Shown here: piece by piece, positions 8,861-55,618 of the stretch | How positions within the stretch are numbered: the stretch's first letter is position 1 | Layout of the letters: every line of letters starts with the position of its first letter | Assembly (NCBI GenBank): GCA_014323825.1 | Contig: JACONI010000072.1 | Coordinates: 5,398-69,397 of the forward strand | Origin: Ekhidna sp. | Lineage (GTDB): Bacteria; Bacteroidota; Bacteroidia; Cytophagales; Cyclobacteriaceae | Length of the DNA: 64,000 nucleotides | Reading direction: 5' to 3' | Notes under the pieces: model-generated | Database searches by the model: none | The model's input: the letters and a program-made list of their open reading frames with translations, nothing else | What the model was told of the DNA's origin: nothing | Made by a program: the position numbers and the translations under genes

Positions 8861-8912
8861 AAAATAACGACGATAGCATTGCAGCAGTCCTCTCTGATTT
8901 GGCGAATCATTC

Positions 8913-8943: not shown

Positions 8944-8987
8944 TTCCGAGCATGTTTTCACTTTGCCGGAGACCTTAATTCTTACCT

Positions 8988-20900: not shown

Positions 20901-22979
20901 TGCCAGGTTTCCGCCGCTCACCGTAACGGTATAAGTAGTGCCGCTGATTTCGGTAACGGCAATCGTTGGACTACCAAGCCCAGTCCCCGAAACCATAAAG
21001 TCTGCCATATCCACATTCTCAACCGCTTCACTGAATGTAATGTCCCAAACAAGCATATTTGCATTGGTGGGAGAAGCTGAAGGCATGTTGTATGCAATGG
21101 CGGTGACTGTCGGCGGGGTATTATCAACTTCATAGGTGACCTGATTGGTGGACGGAGTGGCTCCAAGATCAAGGTCATTTCCTGCTAAATCTTCAATGTC
21201 ATTTCCCGGATCTGCTATATCCAGTGTAACATCACCGTTTAAACTTGCCAGGTTTCCGCCGCTCACCGTAACGGTATAAGTAGTGCCGCTTCCGGTAACG
21301 GTAATCGTTGGACTACCAAGCCCAGTCCCGGTAACCGTAAAGTCTGCCGGAACCACAGTCGGAACCGCTTCACTGAATGTAATGTCCCAGACAAGCTCAT
21401 CTGCATTGGTGGGAGAAGCTGAAGGCATGTTGTATGCAATTGCGGTTACTGTCGGCGGGGTAGTATCGGTTGGGCCATTCAGCATAACCTCGTTTGAGGA
21501 AGAGGACTGCATAGCCATTGCGGCATTACCTGCTGCATCGTACACACTATTAGCTATTAAATCCACTTCTAATGTCTCCGCACCGTCTGCTGTGCCGTTC
21601 AATGAAAAGCTCAAACGAACAACGGTCTCTCCCCCTGCTAATGTAGTACCTCCGCTGGTTACACTTGTGACACTTCCAAACGTTGCGGTACCTCCACTGA
21701 TGCTGATGGCAAAGTCCGAAGCCTCCAATGCACCGCTCCCACCGGCGGCGTTATAAACTCCTTCACTAAAGGTGACATCTACATAGGTGTTATCCGAAGC
21801 TATTGCAACACTTTGGATGGCGGGCAGGGTATTATCAACGGTATAGGTAACCTCATTGGGGGACGGAACGATGGGCAGATTCAGTGCATCTCCTCCTAAA
21901 TCAGTAATGTCATTTCCCGAACGTATGCTCAGTGTAACATCACCGTTTAAACTTGCCAGGTTTCCGCCGCTCACCGTAACGGTATAAGTAGTGCCGCTTC
22001 CCGCGACATTGGTTACTGTAGCAGTAGTACCGCTCACCATAAAATCCATTGCCTCCACATTCTGAACCGCTTCACTGAACATAATCTCCCAGACAAGCAT
22101 ATCTGCATTGGTGGGAGAAGCTGTTGATCTTGTAATGCTTTGAACTGTCGGCGGGGTAATAACAGTACTACTAGTAGTGAACATCGTAAGGTCAGGTGGA
22201 AATTCAGCGCCCCTCGAATTACTTGCAGCACCATTTCCATCATCTACACGCCAATTCGACATATCCATAATCTCCGGAAGGTAAGCTGCATACGACATTT
22301 CAGTGTTCCGAGGCCCAATATATTCCAATACATCCCGGTTATTCGTTATTTGCTGTCCATTAAAAGCATGTGTACCTATGGTAAGTCCGGAGCCCGTAAT
22401 GAGACTACTAGATATAAGGCCGCCATTAATAACAAATGTACGATTAGGCCTCCCATTACTTATTGCCGCAAGAGGCGTTGGCATCATTGGAGTGCCCGTA
22501 TAGGCCCAGATCGCATCATTTTCTTTAGCCGGATCAAATCTACCGCTTCTGCTAATAGTTCCCGTGGAGGGAGTAGGAGTTGTTGTATCTACATTGGAAA
22601 AGAGCACCACCGTACCTGCCGGTATTTCTGCATTTATGGTCCAGGTAAGTACACCCTCTGTAGTATTCCAGCGGGAACCGTCGCTATCATCATTGTCCCA
22701 TTGATTGTCCGTAAAGAAAATATTAGCGGTTGGTGTAGATACATTTATATTAACAAGTGTTACGATCGCAAAGCCCTTTCCTTCGGTACTACCATCATCG
22801 CTATTGTACGCTATAAATGCAATATCTCCGGCAGCTAAGGCTGAAACTTCTTTAGACGTTTGGGCTAAAATGCTGCCACAGATGCCGGTAAGCAGTAATA
22901 AATAAAGTTTTAACCTGTGAAGAACCCCTCTGTGGTAAAAGGTTTCCGTTTGTTTTTGAGTGCTTTTCTCCATTTCCAA
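8988..22979 (-). CDS. Giant (4663 aa) T9SS type-A secreted surface protein or adhesin with Ig-like repeat arrays, PKD, MAM-like and Omp28-like domains
   Basis: Signal peptide (SILA|Q), five TPPTV...FSEAV...VDN Ig repeats, SbsA-like (TTAPSVTSVMPADNATNV) and SwmB-like repeats, C-terminal FVLYPNPAN...GLYFIHI...KRVIVIH type-A CTD. Confidence 0.9.
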   Translation of the reverse strand: MEMEKSTQKQTETFYHRGVLHRLKLYLLLLTGICGSILAQTSKEVSALAAGDIAFIAYNSDDGSTEGKGFAIVTLVNINVSTPTANIFFTDNQWDNDDSDGSRWNTTEGVLTWTINAEIPAGTVVLFSNVDTTTPTPSTGTISRSGRFDPAKENDAIWAYTGTPMMPTPLAAISNGRPNRTFVINGGLISSSLITGSGLTIGTHAFNGQQITNNRDVLEYIGPRNTEMSYAAYLPEIMDMSNWRVDDGNGAASNSRGAEFPPDLTMFTTSSTVITPPTVQSITRSTASPTNADMLVWEIMFSEAVQNVEAMDFMVSGTTATVTNVAGSGTTYTVTVSGGNLASLNGDVTLSIRSGNDITDLGGDALNLPIVPSPNEVTYTVDNTLPAIQSVAIASDNTYVDVTFSEGVYNAAGGSGALEASDFAISISGGTATFGSVTSVTSGGTTLAGGETVVRLSFSLNGTADGAETLEVDLIANSVYDAAGNAAMAMQSSSSNEVMLNGPTDTTPPTVTAIAYNMPSASPTNADELVWDITFSEAVPTVVPADFTVTGTGLGSPTITVTGSGTTYTVTVSGGNLASLNGDVTLDIADPGNDIEDLAGNDLDLGATPSTNQVTYEVDNTPPTVTAIAYNMPSASPTNANMLVWDITFSEAVENVDMADFMVSGTGLGSPTIAVTEISGTTYTVTVSGGNLASLNADVTLSIDVGNNITDAAGNALDLTTPPSTNQVTYEVDNTPPTVTAIAYNMPSVSPTNANMLVWDITFSEEVSTVVPGDFAVSRGSGSVFTNSPTIAVTGSGMNYTVTVSGGDLSTGLDDDVMLSVGNSITDEARNALNLSPPTSPSPNQVTYTVDNIPPTVQSITRSTASPTNADMLVWEIMFSEAVQNVEAMDFMVSGTTATVTNVTGSGTTYTVTVSSGDLADLTANVTLSIADPGNNITDVLTNTLNLGTTPSPDEFTYIVDNTPPSLSFNTFNAMMFDMSVLGDGFLNAAEDDTDLIITGTAAGAEDGREVTLTLNSATYTGNVTSGVWQVTIPATGLQGLTNGTMYSIEANVSDQAGNAATPVSTTRDFTYDDMLPTITGTPGVTSPMVSGFTINAQMSEAGEVHYVVLADGESPPTNLQVKAGQDDGGDAAIVSGTITISTVGTDVSEAVNTYDLSGSTSYEVYLVAEDQSGNLSSPVSQIDATTATADDNSQISTSTTLDESSVDISSVSNVTPGIEVFDFTVTDQSGDGAPTLITGLTIRSGTASSTELSGVWDQVIAGARLFDGTNSVDASMINGSSIQFNTIPIGPGALGEIAESASKTYTLSIWLETTLPGTLPENFDNKSFDFSVAKTDIMTSAAGSNFTGSTVTASISSGAVNTEVVATELDFHALPPRIYINFDFSLTVEAADANGNRDVDVDNNVTLSKATGAGGLTSASGLTRDLSSGVFEWTDLEVDMFDNTTPSYTFTVSDNTVTTPLAAVTSTPEINTSIPDDDSEILPVGGEQTTLIPYINNADNPIPAGGSGSVQVMTFSIQDMGFDGIPTFIGDITIDITKGPDAELDSIGIFSSDASVKYGAAPATASSTIGLGSGGLEVANNDTETLQIRVSFETMVTDKSQFEFMISAVTPLSTVTTSTVGGPISAVSRTTTNDNTIDVKATQLNNTSIDAIVFVNEAFNAVVQAEDANGNVDKDYTETLTASVETDDGSGTITVGSLSVTDGVYTFSDLQLNNGGDHKITFTSSGTPSHVVKSGDIVALFKTSDVIADPGFTYPKFFDYETYDASTIDNTAITNNEALAIAQFVVRDGGTGDNSDGRPTEISAVTFRLDLNTPNVIENLALFDQDGNQRGNQEAAATNVIFDFDEAGASGNDVIDDTDDHVYTLYATFQQKSGITDKEQIQVTLTDITNVTNSDTRSYFTRSTSTIVTSPTEVMNSRNIRTSTTGDDNVLDVIADRIVYTTNPGVVRGARVYERSTGLTSESATVTSSGITRSRNITFTIEARDVNGNLDTDEASALTITGTSSMGGTPDFRTMDDRTQFTNGQVNDTIRITTEHESLRLEISDADANAGSRDGSSEVGNAGTSDPFDVYDTTAPSVTSVMPADNATNVPIAGVGGVGRTLTMVFDEEIEVNPAGGVIVVQGSTTPVAEQYILDIGNPAQVSVAPGTGSPPTSGSTVTLTLPANLTSDIDYFVNIPQGTFRDDTEGTIGGLENDFAGYTMGTEWNWDMETVLTAVNATSTSTTATGGTVTLEFNENVDITEGGIPVTTSGGTVQGFFSIRDGGGSTTTGNTITITSLADGTDNDEFLVLNYTGTPAGDLVITYTDGGAGGVTLAGASTPELSAITGNSLVVDLDNTVPTLTGATRSSDTEIELTFSEPVFIENKIAAEMEVVDGLRNAFPGLGLGNAFAVSDWNDGTSGDNQITITTASFSGAIGDLTVTYRKTTSSIEDFGFNELQNSQSAAVENDNTAPTFTSAAYIDENNIELTFSEPIRTRGVNHGDFTVTDGAGSPPYTVFNQLDGTPGDSKITIRTQDLDRALGDLTVEYNNRNAEITDFGGNTAPSGTQTISRDNKAPVFSSATKDSDTQITVTFDEEVQIISGTPGGTFGFTVEDRAGTDYAVTGQAYRTARTVPDAEIVLTTADLSNAVGSLTVSYTHNDANDYIADFGNNNAADPTTEEQTITGDDRVPEFSSATRDSDTQITATFNEPVQIVRGTASPATFGFTVEDEAGGTYAVTGQADGTGGDTDIVLDTEDLSGSVGDLLVSYAHNAANDYIVDIGGVDIGGNNNPNNTTITIEQSMRFAPELSGGSLPASTEAIYYVPPGMPTPTDHGDQLALFRTGKIVSGVSQPADPSGRTPVKITPRIDGSTITVYSDAALTNMVLENTGTSKSSGYSPTVGQFFSMPPFSGFIDFSGDDDNGVYTFYITETAGNGRSSRGPAIPYSIAFLDDITKTIAGPTPDDATTFNEDQNEIIVNISLAHPTGQILDFTGSALRSVVDNPGGTSSVEFRVGAATADENQTSIIWRSNTSGVQATFEPSELAFNIISREDVFAASSSIVDRSFAREGAPETLMLNTSLDDFDVGPTEGSKDQDFYTIEAYFIDEDDERIDSVDVAGTKTLVGEVGIVDDGGNIAPQILNYNTTGTVPATTGTTGNAAPSRIDGAWEIRPKTFLDNLNSTIKNELFDDPMDAIYGLDDRVTIRLYMIWRSDDATPRYGQIGRQDIYLYPEPEITITLQRLKNEEEEEMKPGIFFNCEDDRDNPRVRAAISNYDDQGDIPGVADNVDVDDSDDDNNIQNGYLLEYSDSNSPFTALRRVNFSEEMINGVAGVAPSTKKNNFSIKNPFGDGNNRTGFFRIIYRSKPLTDAEIVVQDTLEFEIRPKVSAPAIDLSANTTEIGGTLTTLSKALDDYGGLGSGRYVFEFCETDIIPDIKIDIASTGADEVKVGSTTNPNSAYKWYRDDALSDDVLIEGNTNVLAPTPNLFRTNPVSGTLRENIYVTRTVRSCESEAVPVDIRTFAIPDPVVLDAPDTDPNIHEDGGEYYFEYCWDRDAANPVTYDMLRIASSLDDPDGREYIQDRSYFAVWDSETAIDPINTIRWNAGGNYKIADLSAAPVSAPVAGTDNMANTITSGEFWISKVVADSTIVDGTADFEGCEGARTKVTAIIYNLPDIPGERRLIGGEPQPIPGNSEFTGDPRFDNDGTDDIYTYYMCAGEEFPDIGLNPPGGLTNDYTFQWSADASFGDLLDITNRRGEVVTQEDLENNTGSGKGTFAAVTPGIYTYYVRIVTNINQNSGYDGCLSSSQRVDIVVYPTADVPVISVADVADRESDGGSQLEATAADIDNFDVQYNFCVDGSTADAGGLDANTLFESMVVFDQNVPTPRAEAPDENNEVLWFTAEADASGVLNNNPIASTLDLSADELPASALQMDGIENGTFHFAVVHRENFIDGYTFFDGCRSDRKDTVYVRVNISTVPVPKFTWTGITAGQPTVFDLIDEAADAGTTVNYDFDIYAVDASGTRTGSPLFSGNTRTSGAVDLRAGNSELTATFASAGVYEAELSVTSLAGCNAVEIRRFRILEHIDLPDLGTRVYQQFFETDDGGWFAEFQSDDGRTGSYPIGSTEDAVARVSTWVHGTPDGVNINGTSGGSGSGQAWSTTGTYDPGSTISNTYVGNEDSWVYSPSFDFSNIPNPAIQFETYRDLEAKDGVTFQYSTDNGTNWITLGEFAPTTDGTSPSSGLNWFNARQISASVGQSAVVNETPENTAKEGWSGQYDANEEEDSRSTNGWLTSTHELVRIADPSTVRFRFALSAQGAVDEAKLGNGFGFDNIRIFNLEKSVLVEQFSSSIDGDAIRVDTTAQLYAGGRLYINYFTTLANAGGRSDVLNARNASDPAQRRAYYGIAELGTSVLDGEVISKNSEVLPGWSDVDISIKELAVADFLLEDAGGSFGLVSNASEPNVISVSAAWRYQLPIDGGNITLQDQDYSFYFAVIEEAVSVDNITDADGKNAYTDLSIDSVYNVFRVFMPNADGEPFTNHTGSFTTDTVFNVSAEWEIYNVYDIDKLRVIAFVQDNNTRRVLQAGDLAVTGKTLSATGTTANDLSGFVLYPNPANSGFIVEFASQITADAAWVLLDQTGREAAAGTIAKGSHRINVNTEEVPGGLYFIHIYGADHKRQSKRVIVIH
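14650..16350 (-). repeat. Array of about five SwmB-like Ig domains in the giant type-A protein
   Basis: Recurring P.F.SA..(DS)D.(Q/E)I..TF.E.V...F.V...V....G.L.VSY; the last two copies also share DNA blocks (cctggccggtcacagcataa, atttgcgtatccgagtct). Confidence 0.65.
14676..14705. repeat. Exact 15-nt tandem duplication (VDIGG-VDIGG)
   Basis: cccgccgatatcaac twice in tandem, in frame. Confidence 0.9.
20094..22157 (-). repeat. Five ~112-118 aa Ig-like repeats with high DNA identity, one unrelated Ig domain between copies 1 and 2
   Basis: Repeated (T/I)PPTV...SPTNA..LVW.I.FSE.V...YTVTVS.G.L....VDN; 20235-20421 and 21969-22155 are identical over 187 bp except one base. Confidence 0.92.
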
Positions 22980-23072: not shown

Positions 23073-23102
23073 CAAATATAGATCGAGCGAAAATAATTTC
23101 AA
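23073..23102 (-). promoter_or_regulatory. Primary-sigma promoter for the 4663-aa gene
   Basis: Minus strand reads TTG-N19-TATATTTG, the Bacteroidota -33/-7 consensus with canonical spacing, ~93 nt upstream of the ATG. Confidence 0.7.
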
Positions 23103-23118: not shown

Positions 23119-24591
23119 CTAATTTTCAATTTTTCCATTGTCATTGGTCTTGATCAGTGAGACGAGTTTCACGCCTCCGCCAAAATCCATGTTGGCAAGT
23201 ACCATGATCTTATTGTCGCTAAGCAAAAGGCCGTCAATGGCTTCATCGTTTCCGTCGGCGGATCCGTAGTGCGTTTCTGCGACTCTTGAGCCCGCCGGGC
23301 TCACTTTCATGAACATGACTTCTTCGGCTCTTTCATTTACCTGTTCACCGGCAGGGTTCAGTTGGCGGAAGCTTTCGTAAGCTCCCAGAATGACGAAGTC
23401 TCTATCACCGGCCTGTACAATTCCCGTTCCTTTTGTTTGCAGCGCCGGGTCAAAACCGCTGGTGAGTGTGGTGCCGGCTATGAATCCTCCCGAACGTGTG
23501 AGGTTCATGAAAAAGGCGTAATTATCTCCCGATGATAAGGTAGAGGTGCCGGTTATGACAAACCCCGATGCTATTTGAACCGCATCACTTACCACTTCAT
23601 TAGAAACGACATCGGTATCGTTTTCTAATCCGTAGGTAATACTGTTGAGTTGGTTCCCGTCCGAAGTTAATTCATAGAACACAACGTTTGTCCCGTTGTT
23701 TCCCCCGTTTTCTCCGAACACACTTCTGTCTGAGGTCGTACCTATTATGACAAGGTTTCCGTTGTCTTTTTCAAAGATCCGGGCTAAGATATCGTCCTGC
23801 CCGCTGCCCTCTAACCCTAATGTTCTTTGCCAGACGGTGGCGATCCCCTCTGCGTTCAATTCAAATTTTATGAGCCGGAAGTCCAAATCGGCAGGTCTCC
23901 CCATCCGTTCGACTTCTATCGTTCCCGCAAAGATGAAGGCTCCGTCCGAAATTTGAATCACATCATTGCCAAAATAGTCGAGGCCGTTGGAGGGATTTCC
24001 ATTGAACAATAACACGGTATCGGCCACTGCGTTTAGCTGCGCATCGTAAAATCCCAGATAAGCGGCATTTACGTTGGCGATGCCCAATGCGTTATCGTTG
24101 AAGCGATAGGTGCCTGCGGTTAAGAATCCGCTTGCCATCGTACCCGTTCGTACAGGTTCGATTCGGGAGCCGGAGGCACTCCCTTCAAGCAGTATAGGTT
24201 CAAACCGGTCATCCGGTACATCCCCTTTGGAGACCATATTTCCATCCTCGTCCGTACCTAATTCCCTGTCGCCGAAGCCATCTCCGTCCGTATCTATCCT
24301 CACTTTTATCTCGGGGGTATAAAAAGCCGAATTAAGATATAAACCCTCGGCAGTCATCCGAATAATGGTAAAGTCGCTATTTCCGGTTTCAACGTTGGTC
24401 TGCGCTCCGAAGACGATTAAAGTGTCTCCGTCAAACGCCAAATCACTTGCATTACTTGTACCATAAGCCGTAATGTCTTCCCCAAAGAAGCGGATGAACC
24501 CTTCTTCCGGCTTGGGGGTTCCCTCCTCCTCTATTTGGCAGGTTGTAAACAACCCTGCCGCACTTATGATCGCCAGCATTCTTTTCATCAT
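23119..24591 (-). CDS. Lipoprotein (490 aa), probable beta-propeller, likely surface exposed
   Basis: Signal II-like leader GLFTT|C followed by acidic QIEEE; recurring blade-end motifs (IIRMTAEG, LIKFELNAEG, FYELTSDG, FMKVSPAG, LIKTNDNG). Confidence 0.7.
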   Translation of the reverse strand: MMKRMLAIISAAGLFTTCQIEEEGTPKPEEGFIRFFGEDITAYGTSNASDLAFDGDTLIVFGAQTNVETGNSDFTIIRMTAEGLYLNSAFYTPEIKVRIDTDGDGFGDRELGTDEDGNMVSKGDVPDDRFEPILLEGSASGSRIEPVRTGTMASGFLTAGTYRFNDNALGIANVNAAYLGFYDAQLNAVADTVLLFNGNPSNGLDYFGNDVIQISDGAFIFAGTIEVERMGRPADLDFRLIKFELNAEGIATVWQRTLGLEGSGQDDILARIFEKDNGNLVIIGTTSDRSVFGENGGNNGTNVVFYELTSDGNQLNSITYGLENDTDVVSNEVVSDAVQIASGFVITGTSTLSSGDNYAFFMNLTRSGGFIAGTTLTSGFDPALQTKGTGIVQAGDRDFVILGAYESFRQLNPAGEQVNERAEEVMFMKVSPAGSRVAETHYGSADGNDEAIDGLLLSDNKIMVLANMDFGGGVKLVSLIKTNDNGKIEN

Positions 24592-25716
24592 CTATCGAAA
24601 TTCTTTTCGTTTTCGCGGCACGTAGAGGGATCTTGTGAACCCCAATGAAAACGTAAACGCATTGATGGTGAGGTCATCCTCTACATGCCCTATTCCAAAC
24701 CGTAGATCATCATTATCCCATCGGGTCTCCGGGTTGATATAATTAAAGAGGGAGTTTTCGTACCTTAGTTCCACGGTAAGAAAGTTAACCTGCGCTCTGC
24801 CCAACCGATACTTGGCTCCAATACCTCCAAAGACGGATACATTTTGATTCGCCGTCTGGTTAAAGTCGGTCAAACCGGTACTGCCGTCCGGGAGTGTAAA
24901 TGTGACTCCTCCCGACCTGCTGGTATCAATGTATTTGGCATCGATCACCCAATCGAGGGATCCTCCTATGTACACATAAGGTATGAGTTTGGCCCGCTTA
25001 CCCTCTTTATTGAGTGCCGAGTAACGGTAATTGTATCTGATCAGTAATGGGAATCTTAACATCGTACTTCTATTTACGGCTACATAGGTCAGTTGGTCGG
25101 GTTCAATGATTTTTCCTTCCACCCCATACGATAACACGCGATACTGGATACCGGCCGCTGCCTCTATCCCTTTTCTTATGTATTTTTCAATGGTGGCTTC
25201 GGCATTAAATCCAATGCGCAGCCCTACTTCTTCACTTTGATAATCTTTGGTTGTTTCCCGGGAGGCAAAGGTATTGAATTCTTGTAATACGGTTATGCTG
25301 GGTATATTCAATCCGCCCTTTATCGCTATCCTAAAGATGGGTTCGGTTTTAAATTTAGCATATAAGAAGTAAAGTTCTGCCGGGTCTTCAGCTGTCAATT
25401 GATGCTCTTTATCTACGTCAAGGAGGTCTATCAGTTTATTTTCGGCTTCCTCTTCATTATCGGTAAAAAGATAAGCCTTGACCAACAGCTTCCTTGCTCT
25501 GATTTCCTCTTCCACTGAAAAACCATTGTTTTCCAAGCACTCGTAGAACTTCTTTTTATCACCTCTACTATCCGTTTGCTCCAGGATAAAGAGCAGCCTT
25601 CCCTGCTCAAAAGCCAATTCGGCTTCTTCGAGTGCCCGCACGCATTCGTTAGCAGACTGAGCAATGGTTGAATAAGAGCAAACCGAAAGGGAATAAATCA
25701 GTAAAAATTTCTTCAT
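24592..25716 (-). CDS. PorT-like/porin-family outer-membrane beta-barrel with N-terminal helical (TPR-like) domain
   Basis: Signal peptide (TIA|Q), ~105-aa helical region with two Cys, then amphipathic strands (IAIKGGLN, LRFPLLIRY, PYVYIGGS, LTVELRYE, FTFSLGF). Confidence 0.75.
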   Translation of the reverse strand: MKKFLLIYSLSVCSYSTIAQSANECVRALEEAELAFEQGRLLFILEQTDSRGDKKKFYECLENNGFSVEEEIRARKLLVKAYLFTDNEEEAENKLIDLLDVDKEHQLTAEDPAELYFLYAKFKTEPIFRIAIKGGLNIPSITVLQEFNTFASRETTKDYQSEEVGLRIGFNAEATIEKYIRKGIEAAAGIQYRVLSYGVEGKIIEPDQLTYVAVNRSTMLRFPLLIRYNYRYSALNKEGKRAKLIPYVYIGGSLDWVIDAKYIDTSRSGGVTFTLPDGSTGLTDFNQTANQNVSVFGGIGAKYRLGRAQVNFLTVELRYENSLFNYINPETRWDNDDLRFGIGHVEDDLTINAFTFSLGFTRSLYVPRKRKEFR

Positions 25717-25725
25717 TCAATCGTT

Positions 25726-28700
25726 TTAGTTATCCTTTCGTTGTTTATCAATATTACATGTTTTCTCATAAGGTATCTCTACGCCTACATACTGGATCCA
25801 TTCGTTTGGCGACATATTCCCCAGGGTAATGTGGCTGCAAATTTCAGCTGCCATCTTGTCAACTTTGGCTGGGTATCTTCTGATGTTTCCATCAGCCGCA
25901 GCCGTCACAAAGAATTTTCCGTCCGGGCTGAAATCCGCGTCATATACCCATCCTTTTTCAAATCCCGGGGCCTTATAATCGCGAAGAACAATTGGAAGAT
26001 CGTAGAGATTTCGGGTATCCCAAATCCTGATTTGCCTGTTGGTGGATGTACCGATTATCAGGCGGTTGTCCGGGCTAAATTCGATGTCGGTAACGGGTGC
26101 TCTGAATCCTGCGAGGGTTGGTTGTTCCTGCTCGTCTTTTTCCAGATTCCAAAGCACAATAGCTCCGTCTTCACTTCCATAAGCCAGAAACTTACCATCC
26201 GGACTAAACCTGACGGAACGAATTGACGGTCTTCTTTTTTTCCTCCTGAGATTTCCGCTACTTTCGGTTCCTTCATTGTCTTCTGTCTTAATCAGTTTGG
26301 AGGGTTTCTCTTCTATCCTGCTCAGATTCCACAGGTATACATGTCCGTCCCTGCCGCCCCCTGCAAGTGTAACCGCATCCGATGAGAGTGCAATTTTATT
26401 GATCCTGACCTTGGATCTGGCCAACTCTTGAGATGTCTTGAAGTCACTTTTTAAAATTCGGTTATCTTCTCCAACCGATATAAATCCTGAGTTATCGGGC
26501 AGGAAAACCAAATCGAAAACAGTGCCCCCCTCATGACCTCCGATTCGAATCGGATCTGCTTCTATGTCTTTAATATTAAACAAAAGAATGTTGTCTTCAT
26601 CCGTACCTAATGCAAGATATTTTTCATCAGGACTAATGTTGACGACCCTTGACACATTATCATTTTGGAAGATCACCTCATAATCTCTTGTTTCAACGTC
26701 CCACTTGATCACTTCTCCATCCGAATTTGCCGAAAACATTGAATTTCCATCATTGGAATAGGCTACCGACCTGGTTCCTTTAGCCTGCTTGGCCTCGGGA
26801 GTCAAGGGGACCCTATATTGATTTAGTGCGGAATCTCCTACCAGCGGGGTAGCCGTCCCGTATTTTACTTCATAAATTCCCTGAAGGGCACTGTAAACAC
26901 CGGCATAGATATCTCCATTATAGTCTTTGCCTTCATCCTTATATTCTTCATAAAAAAGGTAAGCCTGCCGCGCCACCAGTCCTCTTAACTCAGCTTGGGC
27001 TGTGTCTTCGGGCAAAATGTTACTTGCTTTGATCGCCATGGACTGCGCAAGGGACTGATACCTCAGCCGTTCCGCTCTTTTAGTCGCTTCCTCCGCTTTT
27101 AACCTTTCCGCATCAGCAGCTTCCCTTTGCTTATCCGCTTCCTCTTTTGCACGCTCAGCGGCTTTTTGTTGTTCCTGTGCCTGTCTTCTGGCTTCATTTG
27201 CTTCCTGCTCCCGCTGCCGTGCCAGGGCAAGGCTTGTCTCTGCCCGCTTTGTTGCAGCCAGTGCGGCATCTCTCTGCTCTGCTGCCTCAGTAGAGGCTTT
27301 CTGCGCCTCGGCAGCCCTTGTCTGCGCGAGGTCGGAGAACGCTTCAGCTTCAGCTTTCTGCTTTTCTGCCTCCAATTTTTGTTTTTCGGCTTCCTTCAAA
27401 GCCTTTGTTGCATCATTTGCTTTAATGAATGCAAAGATCACAAGCGTGAGAGTTATCAAGGTGGCAATGGCCAAAATAACAGCCGTAAGGCGCATACGCT
27501 TTACCTGCTTCTTCTGAAGGATTTCCTTGTTGCGTTGTTCGGTCAGGTAGGCTTTCTCGGAAGTTTCCAGGAATACCATGGTACGCTCAAAGGCAGGATT
27601 GTATCGCTGCCCCCAAACGAGTGTCGGTTTGTTTTCATCTCTCCAGTTCAATGCTAACTGAAGGTCCGGCATCTGCCAGAGCCCTGCTCTACCTTCCTGA
27701 TATCTTTCGGATGCTTCGGAAAGCTTGAGATACATTTCAGCGGCCTTGGATTCTTCGTCCAGCCATCTTTTCAGTCGAATCCAAATTCTCATTAAACTTT
27801 CATGAGAAATATCCACCACAGTATCCGACTCCAGCATTACACCGGAAGGAGGCATCAGTAAGGACCTTCCCGGCTCCCTAAAACGCTCGACAACTCTTCC
27901 TACCTCATCCTCATTCACACCCGTAATCGCAGCAATCGTAGATAACTTAGTCGGCCGTCGGATTCCCTGACTGTCGGAACTTTTTTCCGTGAGGGCTTTA
28001 AACATCACCTCACATATTTCTTTCTCTCGTTTGGTCAGCGAATCATACGCTTCATTGGCATGCTGAGATAATGCCTCTCTAAGCGTACCCACTGCGTTGT
28101 AATGTCTTAAATCAATGGGCTCCCCTTCTTTTCTGTTGTCAGTCCAGTAAGACCAGGTTCTCATCAAAGTATGCTGAAGGATCGGTAATTGATCCGGGTT
28201 ATCTCCCACATCATTCAATAACTGCTGTATCAGCCTTGGAGCAATTTTACCGCCTCCTACCGCAACGGGGCCTTCGATCGCCGTTCTCTTCTGATCTCTT
28301 GTCATCTGGGGGATCAGATAGTGAGAGTCGTTGATCATTTGTGTCAAATCAGGGAATTGCGCACACTCTCCGATAAAATCGGAACGCATCGTCAATGCGA
28401 TGTAGATAGGTTCGTCGTGTTGGTGAATTGCCTCCAAAAGAAGGTTCACAAAAGCACTTGATTCGTCTAAATCCGATGTATCAGCCTCTAATTTTCGATA
28501 CCTGAAGAGCTCTTCAAACTGGTCAACAAGGATGAGAATATTTTCGTGATCCGCTGTTTTTAACTGTCGAACTACCTCTACCAATCCCAGAGAACTGCTT
28601 CTGAGCACCGTGCTCATGATCGTTTTTCTTATGAGCTTATCTTCGTCCCCAAGGCTTGAATATTCTCGATCTTTTATCAATAAGGCTTCTGCCAGGTTAT

Positions 28701-29019
28701 CTATCGGCCCTCCACCCGGTCGGGTAACAGCAATCTTCCAGTTGGAGCCGGCCTGTGTCATGAATCCTCCGTAAAGTGTAGGGATAAGCCCGCAATACAT
28801 CAGCGAAGACTTACCGCTGCCGGAAGTGCCCAGAATGGCTACAAATTTGTTGTCCGACAGCTTAACCAAAATCTCGTCGCTCTGACCTTCGCGCCCGAAG
28901 AAGAGATGACTTTCTTCAATACCGAATGGCCTCAGTCCCGGAAACGGATTGATAAGTTGGGTAATGTCAACAATATCGCGGGCTTCCTGCCCTTGAATAT
29001 CAATTTGTTTATTGCTCAT
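25726..29019 (-). CDS. nSTAND1-type P-loop NTPase + TM helix + coiled coil + WD40 beta-propeller
   Basis: NPFPGLRPF...FFGRE, Walker A GTSGSGKS (aa 64-71), Walker B ILVDQFEELF, TMRSDF, DQLPILQH; TM aa ~511-532; E/A/K/R coiled coil; WD repeats (VAYSNDG, VRFSPDG, IEFSPDN, IRIWD, ADFSPDG). Confidence 0.9.
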   Translation of the reverse strand: MSNKQIDIQGQEARDIVDITQLINPFPGLRPFGIEESHLFFGREGQSDEILVKLSDNKFVAILGTSGSGKSSLMYCGLIPTLYGGFMTQAGSNWKIAVTRPGGGPIDNLAEALLIKDREYSSLGDEDKLIRKTIMSTVLRSSSLGLVEVVRQLKTADHENILILVDQFEELFRYRKLEADTSDLDESSAFVNLLLEAIHQHDEPIYIALTMRSDFIGECAQFPDLTQMINDSHYLIPQMTRDQKRTAIEGPVAVGGGKIAPRLIQQLLNDVGDNPDQLPILQHTLMRTWSYWTDNRKEGEPIDLRHYNAVGTLREALSQHANEAYDSLTKREKEICEVMFKALTEKSSDSQGIRRPTKLSTIAAITGVNEDEVGRVVERFREPGRSLLMPPSGVMLESDTVVDISHESLMRIWIRLKRWLDEESKAAEMYLKLSEASERYQEGRAGLWQMPDLQLALNWRDENKPTLVWGQRYNPAFERTMVFLETSEKAYLTEQRNKEILQKKQVKRMRLTAVILAIATLITLTLVIFAFIKANDATKALKEAEKQKLEAEKQKAEAEAFSDLAQTRAAEAQKASTEAAEQRDAALAATKRAETSLALARQREQEANEARRQAQEQQKAAERAKEEADKQREAADAERLKAEEATKRAERLRYQSLAQSMAIKASNILPEDTAQAELRGLVARQAYLFYEEYKDEGKDYNGDIYAGVYSALQGIYEVKYGTATPLVGDSALNQYRVPLTPEAKQAKGTRSVAYSNDGNSMFSANSDGEVIKWDVETRDYEVIFQNDNVSRVVNISPDEKYLALGTDEDNILLFNIKDIEADPIRIGGHEGGTVFDLVFLPDNSGFISVGEDNRILKSDFKTSQELARSKVRINKIALSSDAVTLAGGGRDGHVYLWNLSRIEEKPSKLIKTEDNEGTESSGNLRRKKRRPSIRSVRFSPDGKFLAYGSEDGAIVLWNLEKDEQEQPTLAGFRAPVTDIEFSPDNRLIIGTSTNRQIRIWDTRNLYDLPIVLRDYKAPGFEKGWVYDADFSPDGKFFVTAAADGNIRRYPAKVDKMAAEICSHITLGNMSPNEWIQYVGVEIPYEKTCNIDKQRKDN

Positions 29020-30530
29020 TAGCTTTTAATTTTAGTTAGAAAGGGTTTCAAGTGTTCAGGCGTGAAGAATCCTCCGTTGTTACCTAACACTAACGCATTA
29101 TTTTTCTTATAGTGTTCAAGATCTACATCCTTTTGACCGTCAAAATAAACCGCTTTAGCCTTTAAAGGTTTCTTGCGGCCAAAACCGGGTGCTTTAAGCA
29201 AGTCCTGTAATTTTGTCTTTATCCAATCTTCGGTAGCCTCACCGAAGTATATGATTGATGCGTCGCATCTTCTTAAATTCTCTTGGTGAATGTACCTAAG
29301 GTCGACCAAATCTCCTTCATAGCTGGGAGATACAACATGGAATCCTTTTTTCTTCAGGTAATCCTGTAATTTATCTATCTGATCAATATCTCTTTTATCT
29401 GCAATCAGATAGATCATTTTGGCCTGATCACCTTCTTTCTGACCTTCCGGTCTTTCCATTCCTCTTTTATTCCTGAATCGTCCTCCCGTAACCAACTCCT
29501 CCTGTATGATGGTCTTTAATTTCTGTAACTGAATCTGGAGCACTTCAACCTCTTCCAGTGCAGCGGCATCACTTTTCAGGTCTTCAATGAAGATTTTCTG
29601 ACGCTCGGTAACGTTTTTCAAATCAGGGGAGACCCAAATTAATCTGCTGAACGGCTGTTTGTTTTTTTCATCTAACGAGTTATTTTTCTCAACCATTTGA
29701 TAGGTATGGTCGGAAGCAACTCTATTTTGAATGTCCACAACGGATAATTTCGAACCTTTAGGTTGATGTCCATAATCTTCCCCTACTATGTGTATTGAAA
29801 GACAACACCTCTCCAAATCCTCCCTAATCATTTGATCCAGTGCTTTAGCTTCCTTAGGCAGCGAATGGTCAGGCAATACTTTGTAACCATGCCTAATCAG
29901 TTCTCTTTTGATAATATCACGATGAGTTACCATATCAACACCGGTACTTGCCAAATACACTGTCTTTTCTCTGGGAATTGTATTATAACTACCTTCGGCT
30001 TTGCTTTTTCCTTTGGTATGAAGCACGCGGCTGACATCATAAGCCATGTCTACCAACTTCGTCCAATAACTGCGTTCAGCATCATTACCAAAAAAATGTA
30101 TAAACTCCTGAGAATCTCCTGTTAATGGATCTATCAAATAAAAATCATAAGTCAAGAGCTCTTCAAACTCCGGCAGCTTAGGATCGGGATCATAGGGTTT
30201 TTTCAAGATTTTAAAAACTCTGGGTATGCCGTCTGCGATAAACTTTTCAACCTCCTTTAATTTTTTTCCGTACAGGTTCAATATCTTTATTATATTGGCA
30301 TTTTCCGTGAAATTTTCAGTAATCACGGTAAGCACAACGTTAAAACTATTCAGTTCAGAGGGGTCGAAGTTTTTTTCATTGATGAGTTTAATTTTAATGT
30401 TTTCTTTTGTGCTCTGATACATGAGCGTTGAAAAGAATCGGTGAAAATTAGTCACCCACCCTCTGACATCTCCCTTAACGGGCTGATCATCTTTGGTAGA
30501 ATAAATCAAGGCTATGTTTTTGTTGCTCAT
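29019..30530 (-). CDS. Protein with three tandem TIR/DUF4062-like domains
   Basis: Domain 1 IALIYSTKDD...GWVTNFH; domain 2 TVYLAST...RELIRHGYKVLP...SIHIVGEDYG; domain 3 IYLIADKRD...YLKKKGFHV...RCDASIIYFG...W. Stop overlaps the STAND ATG (TAATG). Confidence 0.65.
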   Translation of the reverse strand: MSNKNIALIYSTKDDQPVKGDVRGWVTNFHRFFSTLMYQSTKENIKIKLINEKNFDPSELNSFNVVLTVITENFTENANIIKILNLYGKKLKEVEKFIADGIPRVFKILKKPYDPDPKLPEFEELLTYDFYLIDPLTGDSQEFIHFFGNDAERSYWTKLVDMAYDVSRVLHTKGKSKAEGSYNTIPREKTVYLASTGVDMVTHRDIIKRELIRHGYKVLPDHSLPKEAKALDQMIREDLERCCLSIHIVGEDYGHQPKGSKLSVVDIQNRVASDHTYQMVEKNNSLDEKNKQPFSRLIWVSPDLKNVTERQKIFIEDLKSDAAALEEVEVLQIQLQKLKTIIQEELVTGGRFRNKRGMERPEGQKEGDQAKMIYLIADKRDIDQIDKLQDYLKKKGFHVVSPSYEGDLVDLRYIHQENLRRCDASIIYFGEATEDWIKTKLQDLLKAPGFGRKKPLKAKAVYFDGQKDVDLEHYKKNNALVLGNNGGFFTPEHLKPFLTKIKS

Positions 30531-30562
30531 GAGATTTATTTGTTGTAAATTTACTTTTCTAA

Positions 30563-33500
30563 TCAGTTATCTCCAAATAAAACATCTACAATTACCTCTT
30601 CCTCTTGTGTTTCTCCATTCATAATATCTATCCAACACTCCAAAATTTCCGTATGCCTGGACATTAAATTGAGCAATTCTTCTTTCCTTATATATAGAAG
30701 CGTACACTCACTCCCTGCTAAAGCCGTAAACTCAAATTTTTCAGTTTCCAGGAGGATTTTTTCCCCAAACACTCCATTTTCTTCTCTCTCCCCGACTTTA
30801 TGAGCACCTTCATAAATGTTTACTACTCCATCCAGTACGATATAAAAAGGTTCCGATCCCTTCTTCCCCTCTTTTATTATTATATCGCCAAGTTTAACAT
30901 TAACTTCTTCAATCACCTCAGCCATGTAAGTGATGACCTCGCCCGGAATTCGTTTAAAAAGTTCTATTTTTCTAAGTATAATAACCCGCTCAATCAGCAA
31001 TAACTTTTGATGGAATCTCTCTTCCTTAGCTCTAAATATCGGAGGTAATATGGCTTTATCAAGCGCTTTCTTAATTGTAGGTTTAAGTCTCTTGGTGTGG
31101 TTATGATACGCCTCTTTTTCTATTTTATAAATGGCAAAAGCGGCGGTCTGCCGAAGTAACGGATCAGGGTTAAACAGATTTGCAATTAAGTCAGCGGTAA
31201 TGTGTGTACTAAGTTCACTGAATCTGAACATTGCAAGTGCTTTGGTGTACCTGTTGATTCTATTATAATCTCTGTTGATTATCTGAAGGAGTAAATCTTC
31301 ATAAGAATCAAAATCTTCCGGGGGATAATTATTTTGCAACTTTGCGAGTCTATCATTAATTTTCAGGTCGTCCATGATAGGCAGAAGTTTGGGTTTCAAT
31401 TCTTCTTCCACAAAAATATCCATCATTTCTACGGCAAACGTTATGCTGTCCGTAGTTCCATTCATGATATTTTCTTTTGCCAGTTTCACACTCTGAGGAT
31501 CGTAAAGCATGGAGAGAAGCATAAAGATATTATCATAATTATTAATATCTTCTTCCACCATCGCTGACTTCATCAATACATCTGTCTCATGCTCTTCGGG
31601 AATTTCCAAACTCGATTTTATGTTCCAGGCTATATCTCCGATTTCTGTTTCTAATGAAAGTTTAATTCGGGCTGACTGAAAATCTCTTGCCACAAACCCG
31701 GAATAGCTCAATGAAAGTAATAATTGAGTAAGGATTTTCCGGTCAGGGAAGTCAATCTTTTTCCAGAGTAATTCAACCGCTCCTCTGCCTCCTATTCTTC
31801 CAATAATTTGAATAATCCTGAGCATCGTCAAGTGGTGTTGACCCGTTTTATAAAATGCAGTATCCAGGGTGTGGAAGGCACTTTCTCCTGCCAGTTTAAG
31901 GGCGGACATTGCAACATTCCCATACGCCGAAAGGTGAAGGTTTTCAATCAAAACAGGCCAAAGTTCCGGTCTTCTTACCTTACCGGCACTCAGCATAGCG
32001 GCAGTTCTTACATCGGGATTAATATCTCGAAGTAATTCGACGATATAAGCAATGTGTCTATCTTCCGTAGCCATTGCCAACAACTTGGCACCTCTTATCC
32101 TCTTGTTTGCGTCGGCTGATCTTACTAATTCTTTGATGGAGACATCTGTTAAATCGAATGAAACAGCCCCTTTAAGCTTCCTCACTGTCTCTTTTGCGAC
32201 AAGAAGCACCTCTTGGTTTCCTTCGGATTTGAAATCCCTGAAGATGATATCGTAGGCCTCCCAACAGAGTCTCTCCCCGAGCTTTTGATAGCCATATTTG
32301 CGAAGCTCAGGATTTCTATGATTGATCAAATCCAGAAGGGTGAACTCAAATTCAACAGGGTCAAGTTTTTCAAAAAGTTTTAAAGCATTAATAACACGAT
32401 CAACTTCTTTTGATTTAATCTCACTTTTCAAAATACTAATCGTATTATTTTCATTTCTCTTACCTTCTCCTTTAAGCCCCGCTTTCTGTTTTTCGAGTGT
32501 TTTTTTCAATGTTTTCTTATATTCCTCAAACAGTTTTGAGGAGAGATAAATCACCATTCCTGCCAACACTAAGATAAAGTACGAATAATGAATCAGCTTA
32601 AAGAAAACCAGCAATCCGAAAGCCATTTGAATAGCACCGGCTAGAAAAGCGCCTACTTCACTGATGACTCCCTCAATTCTTGTTTGAATATCAAAGCGAA
32701 TCTTAAAGTCCAGCGGCAAAAAGAATAACTTAAATGCAGGGCCTTCAAGCGCATCTCTCAGCGCGGCTGTAAATAATCTTGCCGTTCCGGTCAATACGAA
32801 AAATAGAATGAAGTTATCTGTTTTGATTTCATACCCAAAAATATGACCGGCAGTAATTGCCCCCACAGTGAACAGGATGAGAATGAGGGGCATTGTCATT
32901 AAAGCAACTTTCAATCCGAATCGACCTATTATAAGATCATTAACAAAACTTTGTATAAAGAATGAGACGAGTATAACTGTTCCGGAGAAAAAGGATAAAA
33001 AATTGGAAAGATCATCCTCATCAGGATACATCGTTTCCGTTGCACTCAAAAATGTATATTCGGTAAAAATGGCTACACCGGTAGAGAAAACAAGAAATAC
33101 GGAGAGCAGCTGCAAATATTTATCCTTCAACAGAGTCACAAAACTCACTTTCCTGACCTCTTCGCCTTTCAGGATATTTGATGCCTTATTGAGATTGAAA
33201 TTGATGGTTAGCAAAAGTGTAAACACAAAGACACCAATAGAGGCCACAGATGATATTAACAGCAAATCATACGTTTCATCAATTACGTAAGTAGTTAAAA
33301 CCGGAATACTAAAGAAAGCAATCATTGTTGCCATCAACTGACCCGTATCAATTCCTCCAATGATTCTCTTTGAAGCACGCAGGTCGAATATCCTACCAAA
33401 AATCCCCCAAAAGCCCACAAGAATTATTGTTGTTACCGGGCCGATCATTACAAATAAAACAAAAGGCAGGATTTGGAACTCACCCTTCAGCGAGTCATCA

Positions 33501-33820
33501 TATCCAATAAACTCAAAAGCGATACGAATTCCGCCGATAAATACCAGAAGCAGGAAAGTAGTGGAGAGAATGAGTGTTGAGTAATTGATTTTTCGCTGGA
33601 GATATACAAAAATGGCGGTACTGACTATACCGGCGGCCCCGGCCATAAAAAAAGCGTTATCCAACCATTCATCTCCTAAGACATCTAAAAACAGGGTCTC
33701 AGCTCCTATCTGATAGGTTGCCAGAAGAATACCCATAAAGAAACCTTTGCCAAGTAGTAAAAGCATTGGTTTTTCTTCACCCCTCTCTCCTCCTAAGAAC
33801 TTTAAAAAAGCTTGGATCAC
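30563..33820 (-). CDS. NTT/Npt1-like (ADP/ATP translocase family) membrane domain fused to HEAT repeats and a C-terminal cNMP-binding domain
   Basis: About 12 hydrophobic segments with FWG.FGRIFDLRASKRI.G.I..G and PAFKLFFLPL motifs; HEAT units (LLRDINPDVRTAA, LFNPDPLLRQTAA); cNMP fold ERV.ILRKIELF...GDIIIKEG...FYIVLDG.V...FGE. Confidence 0.82.
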   Translation of the reverse strand: MIQAFLKFLGGERGEEKPMLLLLGKGFFMGILLATYQIGAETLFLDVLGDEWLDNAFFMAGAAGIVSTAIFVYLQRKINYSTLILSTTFLLLVFIGGIRIAFEFIGYDDSLKGEFQILPFVLFVMIGPVTTIILVGFWGIFGRIFDLRASKRIIGGIDTGQLMATMIAFFSIPVLTTYVIDETYDLLLISSVASIGVFVFTLLLTINFNLNKASNILKGEEVRKVSFVTLLKDKYLQLLSVFLVFSTGVAIFTEYTFLSATETMYPDEDDLSNFLSFFSGTVILVSFFIQSFVNDLIIGRFGLKVALMTMPLILILFTVGAITAGHIFGYEIKTDNFILFFVLTGTARLFTAALRDALEGPAFKLFFLPLDFKIRFDIQTRIEGVISEVGAFLAGAIQMAFGLLVFFKLIHYSYFILVLAGMVIYLSSKLFEEYKKTLKKTLEKQKAGLKGEGKRNENNTISILKSEIKSKEVDRVINALKLFEKLDPVEFEFTLLDLINHRNPELRKYGYQKLGERLCWEAYDIIFRDFKSEGNQEVLLVAKETVRKLKGAVSFDLTDVSIKELVRSADANKRIRGAKLLAMATEDRHIAYIVELLRDINPDVRTAAMLSAGKVRRPELWPVLIENLHLSAYGNVAMSALKLAGESAFHTLDTAFYKTGQHHLTMLRIIQIIGRIGGRGAVELLWKKIDFPDRKILTQLLLSLSYSGFVARDFQSARIKLSLETEIGDIAWNIKSSLEIPEEHETDVLMKSAMVEEDINNYDNIFMLLSMLYDPQSVKLAKENIMNGTTDSITFAVEMMDIFVEEELKPKLLPIMDDLKINDRLAKLQNNYPPEDFDSYEDLLLQIINRDYNRINRYTKALAMFRFSELSTHITADLIANLFNPDPLLRQTAAFAIYKIEKEAYHNHTKRLKPTIKKALDKAILPPIFRAKEERFHQKLLLIERVIILRKIELFKRIPGEVITYMAEVIEEVNVKLGDIIIKEGKKGSEPFYIVLDGVVNIYEGAHKVGEREENGVFGEKILLETEKFEFTALAGSECTLLYIRKEELLNLMSRHTEILECWIDIMNGETQEEEVIVDVLFGDN

Positions 33821-33925
33821 AATTATAAATATATTATATGGCTATAAATTAAATAACTATAAATGGAAATATTCAAAAATTACCGTTATAAAATGTACAT
33901 TAAAAATTGAACGCAAATAGTTTAA

Positions 33926-34750
33926 TTATTTCTTCTTTTTATTACTTTCTCTGGCAGTACTTTTTCCTTTTCTCTTGAGCTGGCTGTTGTAGTCAAACAT
34001 ATAGGCAACTCCTAAAGTTGCAATACCGTGGTAGTATTCAAAATTTTCACGGTAACTGTCAAAAGCTAAAAAATCATCGCTGTCATTAGTGCCCATGTTA
34101 CTATGCACCCACGTATATCTAAAGTCGAATTGCAAGCGGCCGCCGCCCTGAATATCAAAAAACAAGCCGCCGCCCGCAGTAAGCCCGAATTGTAGTCGAT
34201 TAGGGTTACTTATATAGGCAGGATCAAAGTTGTCTGCCTCCAATAAAGCAGACTCTTTAAAGGTGATGGTGTATTCGACCGGTAAGGCGTTTTCATTTTC
34301 GTCAATTCCGGCAGGAGTAGACTCGTCAAACTCTTCGAGTGATATTTTTCCTTTTCCACCTAACCAAAATGAAATCCTCGGCCCGCCGTTTATATAGTAG
34401 TGAAACGGAACACGACCAAGCGTAATTCTTAACATTACCGGCACTGATAAAAAATGGTTGGTCATCTCCGTACTTACGTTTTCACCATCTGTGGCTAAAT
34501 CCGTAATTTTCTTTCCTATCTTCTCGTATAATAATTCTCCATACACAGCATACCTGTCGGTGGCCGAATAGCTGACTGCTAATCCGGCCTGAAAATTCCA
34601 ATTTTTAGGGATATTAAAAGAATCACTTTCATAAGTGCTTTCCTGAAAAATATGATCTATATAGCTAAACCCAACTTTGGGACCAAACCAATACTGGGCA
34701 AACACCGAAGAGGTGAAAAAGGAAAAAGCAAAAACAAGAAGATATCTCAT
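33926..34750 (-). CDS. PorT-like/porin-family outer-membrane beta-barrel
   Basis: Signal peptide (VFA|Q), WFGPKVG, LSVPVMLRI, YINGGPRISFW, LQFDFRY, ATLGVAYMF. Confidence 0.8.
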   Translation of the reverse strand: MRYLLVFAFSFFTSSVFAQYWFGPKVGFSYIDHIFQESTYESDSFNIPKNWNFQAGLAVSYSATDRYAVYGELLYEKIGKKITDLATDGENVSTEMTNHFLSVPVMLRITLGRVPFHYYINGGPRISFWLGGKGKISLEEFDESTPAGIDENENALPVEYTITFKESALLEADNFDPAYISNPNRLQFGLTAGGGLFFDIQGGGRLQFDFRYTWVHSNMGTNDSDDFLAFDSYRENFEYYHGIATLGVAYMFDYNSQLKRKGKSTARESNKKKK

Positions 34751-34827: not shown

Positions 34828-34860
34828 TAATTTTGATTCTCTACTATTCGGGCAAATGTA
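34828..34860. promoter_or_regulatory. Overlapping divergent -7 elements
   Basis: TAATTTTG (+, 34828-34835) toward PorP-SPOR and TACATTTG (-, 34853-34860) toward the barrel/NTT arm. Confidence 0.45.
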
Positions 34861-55605: not shown

Positions 55606-55618
55606 TTTTGAGGGGAGA

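Follow-up and report, generated by a model that had tools for sequence, protein, structure and literature searches.

Modules of the STAND/NLR and TIR types are familiar as cytoplasmic immune switches. Parts of this kind occur in a cluster of co-oriented genes, termed here g2 to g6 together with a giant gene whose product carries a type IX secretion system (T9SS) sorting domain, on a 64,000-nt stretch of DNA from Ekhidna sp. (assembly GCA_014323825.1, contig JACONI010000072.1, positions 5,398 to 69,397 of the forward strand; hereafter the window), which belongs to an assembly of 3.0 Mb in 122 contigs that is 97.5% complete. The product of g4 falls into the same NTPase clade as the nSTAND1 conflict systems surveyed by Kaur, Burroughs, Iyer and Aravind (2021, eLife, PMC8195603), whose main text names nSTAND1 once, and only as a conflict-system NTPase. 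The architecture 'nSTAND1+TM+BetaPropeller' is listed 278 times in section 8 of source-data file 1 of that paper, and its supplement lists an orthologous three-gene core for Marinoscillum sp., a member of the same family as the window. A preliminary description of the window had held that the combination was undescribed, which has to be given up for this three-gene core and stands for the outer-membrane (OM) barrel, the propeller lipoprotein and the giant T9SS gene, none of which is in the Marinoscillum row. Topology, loss of catalytic residues, vertical inheritance and unit borders are not discussed in that paper (PMC8195603).

Two other described families are represented in the cluster. Fusions of a nucleotide transporter (NTT) with HEAT repeats and a cyclic-nucleotide-binding domain (CNB, or cNBD), the same three-part architecture as that of the g2 product, are widespread in free-living bacteria and uncharacterised (Major, Embley and Williams 2017, GBE, PMC5381601); in the accessible part of that text, gene neighbourhood comes up solely in connection with a separate cNBD gene, and partners of the STAND or TIR type are not named. 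DUF4062, the domain at the centre of the g3 product, is described in three 2026 preprints as a TIR-like NADase ('NIR') with an essential Glu (bioRxiv 10.64898/2026.09.04.749371 and 10.64898/2026.05.01.722283 among them), namely E97 in KpSwz, E108 in PsAvs2, E98 in Vulcan, E87 in Eva01 and E1008 in TEP1; changing this residue from E to Q or from E to A abolishes function, and the E-to-Q change ends NADase activity (bioRxiv 10.64898/2026.09.04.749371). PsAvs2 and human TEP1/NWD1 (DUF4062-NACHT-WD40) follow the same domain logic as our cluster, in which a TIR-like module is joined to a STAND NTPase and to a sensor of WD40 or other repeats, with DUF4062 at the effector position. In the window, by contrast, a protein of its own bears the TIR-like modules, which are present in triplicate and have other residues in place of the catalytic Glu (K/Q/K in the three domains), the STAND protein is predicted to be membrane-inserted with its sensor across the membrane, and depletion of NAD+ is not expected.

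Systems of the Pycsar and Thoeris types have in common with g2 a nucleotide-binding regulatory domain (CNB or SLOG in those systems) fused to a membrane effector, and one relative of our cluster (locus L108) fuses a class III cyclase to its TIR-DUF4062 protein; the cluster of the window differs from them in having no cyclase, a degenerate CNB, TIR domains that are predicted to be inactive and no PADLOC system. PADLOC-DB 2.0 recognised no named defence system, in agreement with the preliminary description, and returned only weak single-domain matches (PycTIR CNB, E 1e-4; a P-loop match to mad3). Tol-Pal with TolB, and T9SS cargo with PorP/SprF, are trans-envelope assemblies with periplasmic propellers. 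The likeness of our cluster to these is one of layout only, in that an inner-membrane protein would reach across the periplasm towards an OM barrel and a lipoprotein and that T9SS cargo genes adjoin; there is no sequence relationship. Full-text literature searches turned up no paper discussing the unit. A link to the sprCDBF gliding operon was considered and dropped: in the gliding paper searched (PMC12635249), neither WD40 nor propeller occurs as a term, and the word 'stand', which turns up twice, does not refer to STAND proteins. The genes and the two sites discussed below are as follows (positions in the window).

33926-34750, minus strand: g1, 274 aa, OMP_b-brl_2 barrel
30563-33820, minus strand: g2, 1085 aa, NTT-like MFS domain with 12 transmembrane (TM) segments, HEAT repeats and a degenerate CNB-like domain
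29019-30530, minus strand: g3, 503 aa, three TIR-like alpha/beta domains (TIR, DUF4062/NIR, TIR-like), predicted cytoplasmic
29727..29729, minus strand: codon of g3 Q268, at the position of the DUF4062/NIR catalytic Glu
25726-29019, minus strand: g4, 1097 aa, nSTAND1 NTPase, one TM helix, coiled coil and WD40 propeller
27424..27480, minus strand: TM helix of g4, residues 514-532, hydropathy peak 2.89
24592-25716, minus strand: g5, 374 aa, signal peptide, helical Cys-pair domain and OM beta-barrel
23119-24591, minus strand: g6, 490 aa, predicted OM lipoprotein with a 7-bladed beta-propeller (delta-60/DUF5122-like)
8988-22979, minus strand: giant gene, 4663 aa, Ig-repeat protein with a C-terminal T9SS sorting domain

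The preliminary description had presented g1 to g6 as one system followed by the giant gene. The open reading frame (ORF) coordinates bear out the co-orientation and the gaps of 105, 32, -1, 9 and 0 nt from g1 to g6; g3 and g4 share a 1-nt stop-start overlap (TAATG) at the junction AGCTAATGAGC, g5 and g6 meet at TAGATG (the stop TAG directly followed by ATG, 0 nt), and the giant ORF follows g6 after 139 nt. The unit itself consists of g2 to g6 plus the giant T9SS gene, and g1 is a mere neighbour, because a natural deletion in a congener (genome G021, 96% complete) spans the giant gene and g6 to g2 and leaves g1 behind. In this genome, which lacks the cluster, the leuS orthologue lies ~380 nt from the g1 orthologue; the contig then continues with PorP/SprF, the 1131-aa cargo gene and the second giant gene, and the missing block corresponds to ~8614-33925 of the window, i.e. 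exactly to the giant gene plus g6 to g2. Furthermore, g1 is conserved only in the family and is missing from the clusters of other families, so that its membership had to be withdrawn; the link to the giant gene proved to be conserved. On the left, the deletable block borders on leuS (5848-8613, plus strand; leucyl-tRNA synthetase).

The arrangement of these genes is far beyond chance. Six other families of the order share the row g2-g3-g4-g5 with unchanged order and strand, at 24-47% identity, and a homologue of g6 is next in five of these six; at least eight lineages of the Cytophagales show this gene order, Rhodocytophaga rosea among them, and it is kept as g2-g3-g4-g5(-g6) in 80/80 related family loci where the contig allows. 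The independent gene calls of R. rosea (CP048222) show a HEAT+cNMP protein of 1063 aa, a DUF4062 protein of 497 aa, an nSTAND1-WD40 protein of 1040 aa, an OMP_b-brl_2 protein of 362 aa and a propeller of 414 aa, with a 3694-aa PKD/Ig_7/Por_Secre_tail protein beginning 1 nt past the propeller gene. The stop-start overlap or near-abutting junction of g3 and g4 is conserved across families as well. Orthologues of g2 and g3 are either both present (26) or both absent (15) in the 41 genomes compared, the sole exceptions to this concordance being two distant NTT-HEAT homologues. The co-inheritance that had been supposed for the genes was thus found in relatives, for g2 to g6 and the giant gene. The related-locus search, which used a 5-sequence alignment, returned ~500 tblastn-confirmed stretches, all from close relatives. 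Homologue searches were dominated by matches from the Ekhidna family, and a profile that left this family out yielded few named organisms.

We consider the unit most likely to be vertically inherited, since it lies at the same chromosomal site throughout the family and its identity tracks taxonomy, that of g3 falling from ~74% in the genus to 52-63% in the rest of the family and ~30% in other families. The cluster is single-copy in the window genome. Its flanking genes are housekeeping genes (leuS in the window; YidC, CTP synthase and TamB in locus L013), and no mobile-element or defence genes were found nearby. As for the proteins themselves, the domain calls made earlier for the six genes hold in Pfam, structure-model and TM analyses.

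The g4 product matches Pfam nSTAND1 (PF20703) with E 4.7e-98 over profile positions 1-374 of 379, and both its Walker A (GTSGSGKS) and its Walker B motif (ILILVDQFEE) are intact; ~24 residues precede this match, with no effector domain N-terminal to the NTPase. Every g4 orthologue has one TM segment, at ~505-530, and the helix is flanked on its N-side by KKQVKRMR, which fits an N-in orientation. It is followed by a ~135-residue Ala/Glu/Lys/Gln-rich, coiled-coil-like stretch and then by the WD40 propeller (WD40 match E 2.8e-33, with many beta-propeller models on residues ~740-1060). Because there is a single TM helix and the N-terminal module depends on ATP, the WD40 domain would lie outside the cytoplasm, in the periplasm by topology. 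Identity of the NTPase is 87-90% in the genus and, between families, still 58-66%, which by far exceeds that of g2 and g3; the WD40 part reaches 55-70% and ~30%, respectively. Behind the propeller, g4 has a C-terminal tail (25726-25900, minus strand; residues ~1050-1097) with the conserved pattern A..iC...NMs..EW.qYVG..i.Ye.TC, the two Cys of which are present in 93% of 29 orthologues. Tails resembling it occur in cytoplasmic WD40 STAND proteins, and the Cys pair was not used as evidence for topology.

The structure model of g3 (AlphaFold2, 29 orthologues; predicted local distance difference test score, pLDDT, 80) contains three beta-alpha domains, at ~1-170, 186-350 and 370-503. DUF4062 matches 28/29 orthologues and TIR_2 17/29, with a best E of 1.1e-7. 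Foldseek searches with the model gave local matches that include MilB/BcmB and the RUN1 TIR domain, the search with the whole three-domain chain being muddled, and sequence and profile searches of the PDB found no solved relative. Since the catalytic positions are occupied by residues other than Glu in all three domains (K, Q268 and K440), we predict all three to be inactive as NADases. In the second domain, Q268 is invariant in the 29 orthologues and retained in every aligned relative but the one at locus L109, where a Glu stands in the Q268 column, and the offset from Y192 to Q268 is 76, the same as that from F11 to E87 in Eva01. In the first domain, Lys occupies the catalytic position in Ekhidna, Asp in other Cytophagales families (CLDDL, CLEDL, CIEDI), and Glu is retained in more distant relatives (WCIREV, WCRREL, WNQEF; loci L103, L104-L108, L105 and L106). 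The third domain has W436-x3-K440.

The product of g2 has 12 hydrophobic segments and matches HEAT_2 and cNMP_binding (PF00027, E 6.5e-12) in Pfam. Its membrane part resembles the ADP/ATP carrier 9j3n in the PDB (E 4.7e-7, residues 218-411 only), a weak but specific match, and its orthologues are labelled 'ATP:ADP antiporter' by JGI. The CNB region matches the regulatory domains of PKG and PKA in the PDB down to E 3.7e-13. In the phosphate-binding cassette, FGEKILLETEKFEFTA, the canonical Arg of FGE...R[ST]A is absent; the Arg column is variable across orthologues and the GE pair is not conserved. Unlike g2, a stand-alone sister copy in another Cytophagales genome (L112) retains the phosphate-binding Arg in its cassette, FGELSLLDAESRSATAVA. 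The CNB is thus without this Arg and, with 15-25% identity between families where the membrane part has 30-45%, it is conserved less than any other part of g2. On these sequence grounds a control of g2 by cyclic nucleotides appears doubtful, and the 'cNMP' label of the preliminary description has to be qualified accordingly.

The remaining members of the unit carry export signals. In g5 a signal peptide is followed by a ~110-aa helical domain, predicted to be periplasmic, and an OMP_b-brl_2 match at residues 128-327; its two Cys, C25 and C59, are shared by at least 90% of 20 orthologues; identity is ~54% in the congeneric comparison. The R. rosea orthologue is named 'PorT family/porin family protein' by NCBI, which we take as a lead only: g5 matched no NCBIfam model, PorT or other, and we therefore rejected its identification as PorT. 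In g6 a lipobox Cys (Cys18), invariant among orthologues, follows the signal peptide, and the AlphaFold2 model (pLDDT 87; predicted template modelling score 0.85) is an all-beta, 7-bladed propeller whose best Foldseek match is the CylK propeller (E 1.6e-14). It is the fastest-evolving gene of the unit, with 31-41% identity in most congeneric loci. The giant protein ends in Por_Secre_tail (residues 4586-4660, E 2e-8) and also contains Big_5 and Big_12. Directly after g6 there is a giant secreted ORF in 37/45 family loci with enough sequence, or 40/45 if split or one-gene-removed cases are included, and likewise in 4/6 other families (L014-L016, L018), where it carries Big_5/Ig_7, SprB repeats or PKD. 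The compartment assignments that had been proposed, from the OM inwards to the cytoplasm, can be graded as plausible.

Related clusters vary around a recurring theme, in which a TM-STAND protein goes with an OM barrel and with an NTT-HEAT protein. One genome carries a second, divergent whole cluster (L109, G030:C10, 5769-15853; g2-like 26%, g4-like 40% identity), and because a Glu stands at the Q268 column its DUF4062 domain may be catalytically active. The L109 cluster is followed by an M23-LysM peptidase gene, not by a giant adhesin. In other Bacteroidota, L104, L107 and L108 encode a TIR-DUF4062 protein, a 7-TM protein of 268 aa and a pair of nSTAND1 proteins of 1350 aa, both of which bear a TM segment; the class III adenylate/guanylate cyclase domain of L108 is fused N-terminally to the TIR protein (8480-10573, plus strand). 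In another variant (L103, G290:C5; L113, G035:C31), nSTAND1-WD40 is followed by a TonB-dependent receptor, by a small enzyme, which is PhzF or GNAT, and by an NTT/MFS-HEAT protein, the TM helix of the nSTAND1-WD40 protein being confirmed for L103 only. L103 also has a g3 orthologue with the TIR catalytic Glu, and a TrkA_N protein upstream. In two Cytophagales families, a HAMP-SpoIIE (PP2C phosphatase) gene of 657-672 aa lies between g2 and g3 (L015:7225-9198, L018:7633-9651).

We tentatively favour the view, to which we would give somewhat less than an even chance, that the unit encodes an NLR-derived signalling device, passed on vertically and spanning the envelope, which is linked to the adjacent giant T9SS surface protein. 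It builds on the computed unit, domain make-up, topology logic, catalytic-residue loss and conservation gradient, to which we add putative protein contacts, a putative cue and a putative output. We prefer a signalling device over a suicide enzyme because of the K/Q/K at the catalytic positions, the strongly conserved NTPase with its intact Walker motifs, the single copy and the housekeeping flanks, and also because PADLOC finds no system and a HAMP-PP2C gene is inserted in two families. That the device would span the envelope is suggested by the single TM helix of g4, the signal peptide and Cys pair of g5, the lipobox Cys and propeller of g6, and the variant in which nSTAND1-TM-WD40 goes with a TonB-dependent receptor. 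The barrel of g5, with its disulfide-stabilised periplasmic helical domain, would form an OM platform together with the g6 lipoprotein propeller, possibly associated with the giant Ig-repeat protein, and the periplasmic WD40 of g4 would read the state of this platform from the end of its ~135-residue coiled-coil stalk. By way of the single TM helix, a change in the platform might then reach the cytoplasmic nSTAND1 NTPase and trigger nucleotide exchange and oligomerisation, as STAND proteins are known to undergo. The translationally coupled g3 protein could act as a non-enzymatic scaffold on the STAND oligomer, possibly still binding nucleotide, and could couple the oligomer to the HEAT/CNB-like cytoplasmic arm of g2, altering the activity of the NTT-type transporter. 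A more specific version, in which a polymorphic giant adhesin and the g6 propeller serve surface recognition from the 'outside in', are read by the periplasmic WD40, and lead the STAND ATPase to gate the NTT-type transporter via a dead triple-TIR scaffold, seems to us unlikely. The path put forward in the preliminary description, from a surface cue through the WD40, a STAND oligomer and TIR recruitment to nucleotide flux or adhesin deployment, is likewise hypothetical.

Several observations weigh against the signalling view. Divergence rises outwards, with congeneric identity dropping from the NTPase (87-90%) through WD40 (55-70%) and g5 (~54%) to g6 (31-41%), as it would under conflict-driven selection. 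The unit is absent from 5/24 congeners and from 10/16 sampled other families, and it can be lost cleanly, as in G021, which would fit an accessory or defence role too. The cluster has no adjacent giant gene in L013, L017, L109 and 5/45 family loci. The NTT identity of g2 has a single weak PDB match as its support, with no Pfam TLC match at E ≤ 0.01, and the catalytic-residue register of g3 has alignment and spacing as its sole basis.

Among the other explanations, that of unrelated neighbours which happen to be co-oriented has a vanishingly small probability and is refuted by the comparative data: the synteny across families, the perfect co-occurrence of g2 and g3, the block deletion in G021, the existence of a whole paralogous cluster and the overlapping or abutting g3-g4 codons all speak against it. 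An anti-phage or anti-predator system of the NLR type, in which the outer parts detect an attack at the surface or in the periplasm and the STAND oligomer activates an NTT-like effector that drains ATP or NAD+ from the cell, has more in its favour, and we regard it as unlikely. The transporter is cast as the effector here because the TIR domains are without the NADase Glu. nSTAND1, TIR and DUF4062 belong to the hallmark components of conflict systems (PMC8195603; the DUF4062 systems Swarozyc, Vulcan, Vesta and Evangelion), and the distribution of the unit is patchy, full-length g3 occurring in 5/12 genomes of the window family and in one genome elsewhere in a 400-genome sample of the phylum. 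The clean loss of the unit, the fast divergence of the sensor-side parts and the weak likeness of the g2 CNB to that of a Pycsar effector (PADLOC PycTIR, E 1e-4) point in the same direction, as does the retention of the TIR catalytic Glu in the simpler relatives (L104-L108, L105, L106) and of a Glu at the DUF4062 position in L109. However, a defence system would sit uneasily with the same chromosomal site throughout the family and an identity that follows taxonomy, with an NTPase that is unusually conserved and three catalytic positions that are all predicted to be dead here, with surroundings free of mobile-element and defence genes and of any PADLOC system, and with the tie to a giant adhesin and, in some families, a PP2C phosphatase gene.

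The unit might instead be an apparatus for the biogenesis, anchoring or quality control of the giant T9SS protein, g5 and g6 holding or assembling the adhesin and the STAND ATPase and transporter regulating or energising the process. The place of the giant gene behind g6, which is seen in most loci and in several families, the gap often being 0-12 nt, its co-deletion with the cluster in G021, the T9SS-rich context with PorP/SprF and CHU_C cargo next door, and the NCBI name 'PorT family protein' on the R. rosea g5 orthologue, as a lead only, would agree with this. We nevertheless consider it quite unlikely, since the loci without an adjacent giant gene listed above, the TonB-dependent receptor variants L103 and L113, which have no adhesin gene, and the failure of g5 to match any NCBIfam model, PorT or other, all count against it, as does the nature of the giant proteins, which are only loosely similar to one another and whose orthology between families is not clear. 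To our knowledge, no T9SS component is a STAND or TIR protein, which is a further point against such an apparatus.

Compared with what has been described, the borders of the unit from a natural empty site, the perfect co-occurrence of g2 and g3 and the gradient of conservation across the envelope are new, and so are, as read from the alignments, a putative E-to-D-to-K trajectory in the first TIR domain and an invariant Gln in the DUF4062 domain. Parts of the immune type are here split over separate proteins, membrane-inserted, with a sensor predicted to lie outside the cytoplasm, catalytic residues lost and inheritance vertical, and they are tied to a putative OM platform, to a giant adhesin and to a protein resembling nucleotide transporters. 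Provided that the proposed mechanism holds, the unit would be an example of an immune module domesticated into envelope signalling. If the 'outside-in' version were true, g4 would supply the first demonstrated case of an extracytoplasmic cue, such as contact, kin/non-self or substrate, being sensed by a bacterial NLR-like protein, and g2 would provide the first physiological role for NTT-HEAT proteins in free-living bacteria. For the NTT-HEAT family, which has stayed uncharacterised since 2017, the cluster offers a setting that can be tested, and the presence of carrier and 'empty-site' genomes in one genus makes for a ready natural comparison of function. Among the carriers, Ekhidna lutea DSM 19307, Marinoscillum furvescens DSM 4134 and Rhodocytophaga rosea are culturable.

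Some further features of the window may be mentioned. A scan of 26001-34000 revealed that G+C within the operon rises to 0.476 over the coiled-coil/WD40 part of g4, compared with 0.377-0.379 over g2 (30001-34000), a contrast that is probably an effect of the Ala/Glu-rich stalk and not a sign of foreign origin. Copies of the Bacteroidota -7 motif TAnnTTTG lie at 34853-34860, upstream of g1, and at 23073-23080, upstream of the giant gene, which can be no more than a hint as the motif is not enriched in the window (44 matches, 54 expected); a scan of the window for sigma-70 promoters and terminators was uninformative for a genome of the Bacteroidota. At 1992-5225 (minus strand), a third T9SS cargo gene encodes a 1077-aa protein with DUF7948, PKD, SBBP and CHU_C. 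Divergent from the operon, a pair of genes at 34941-40192 (plus strand) encodes a 626-aa PorP/SprF barrel with a long C-terminal extension and, overlapping with it, a protein of 1131 aa that combines FG-GAP/TIG/PKD with a T9SS signal of the CHU_C (type B) kind; this pair adjoins g1 throughout the family. Further along, a second giant protein of 4590 aa (41833-56539, plus strand; FG-GAP/Ig_7/CHU_C) is followed 13 nt on by a PorP/SprF barrel of 306 aa without an extension, type B cargo and PorP thus forming their classic pair.

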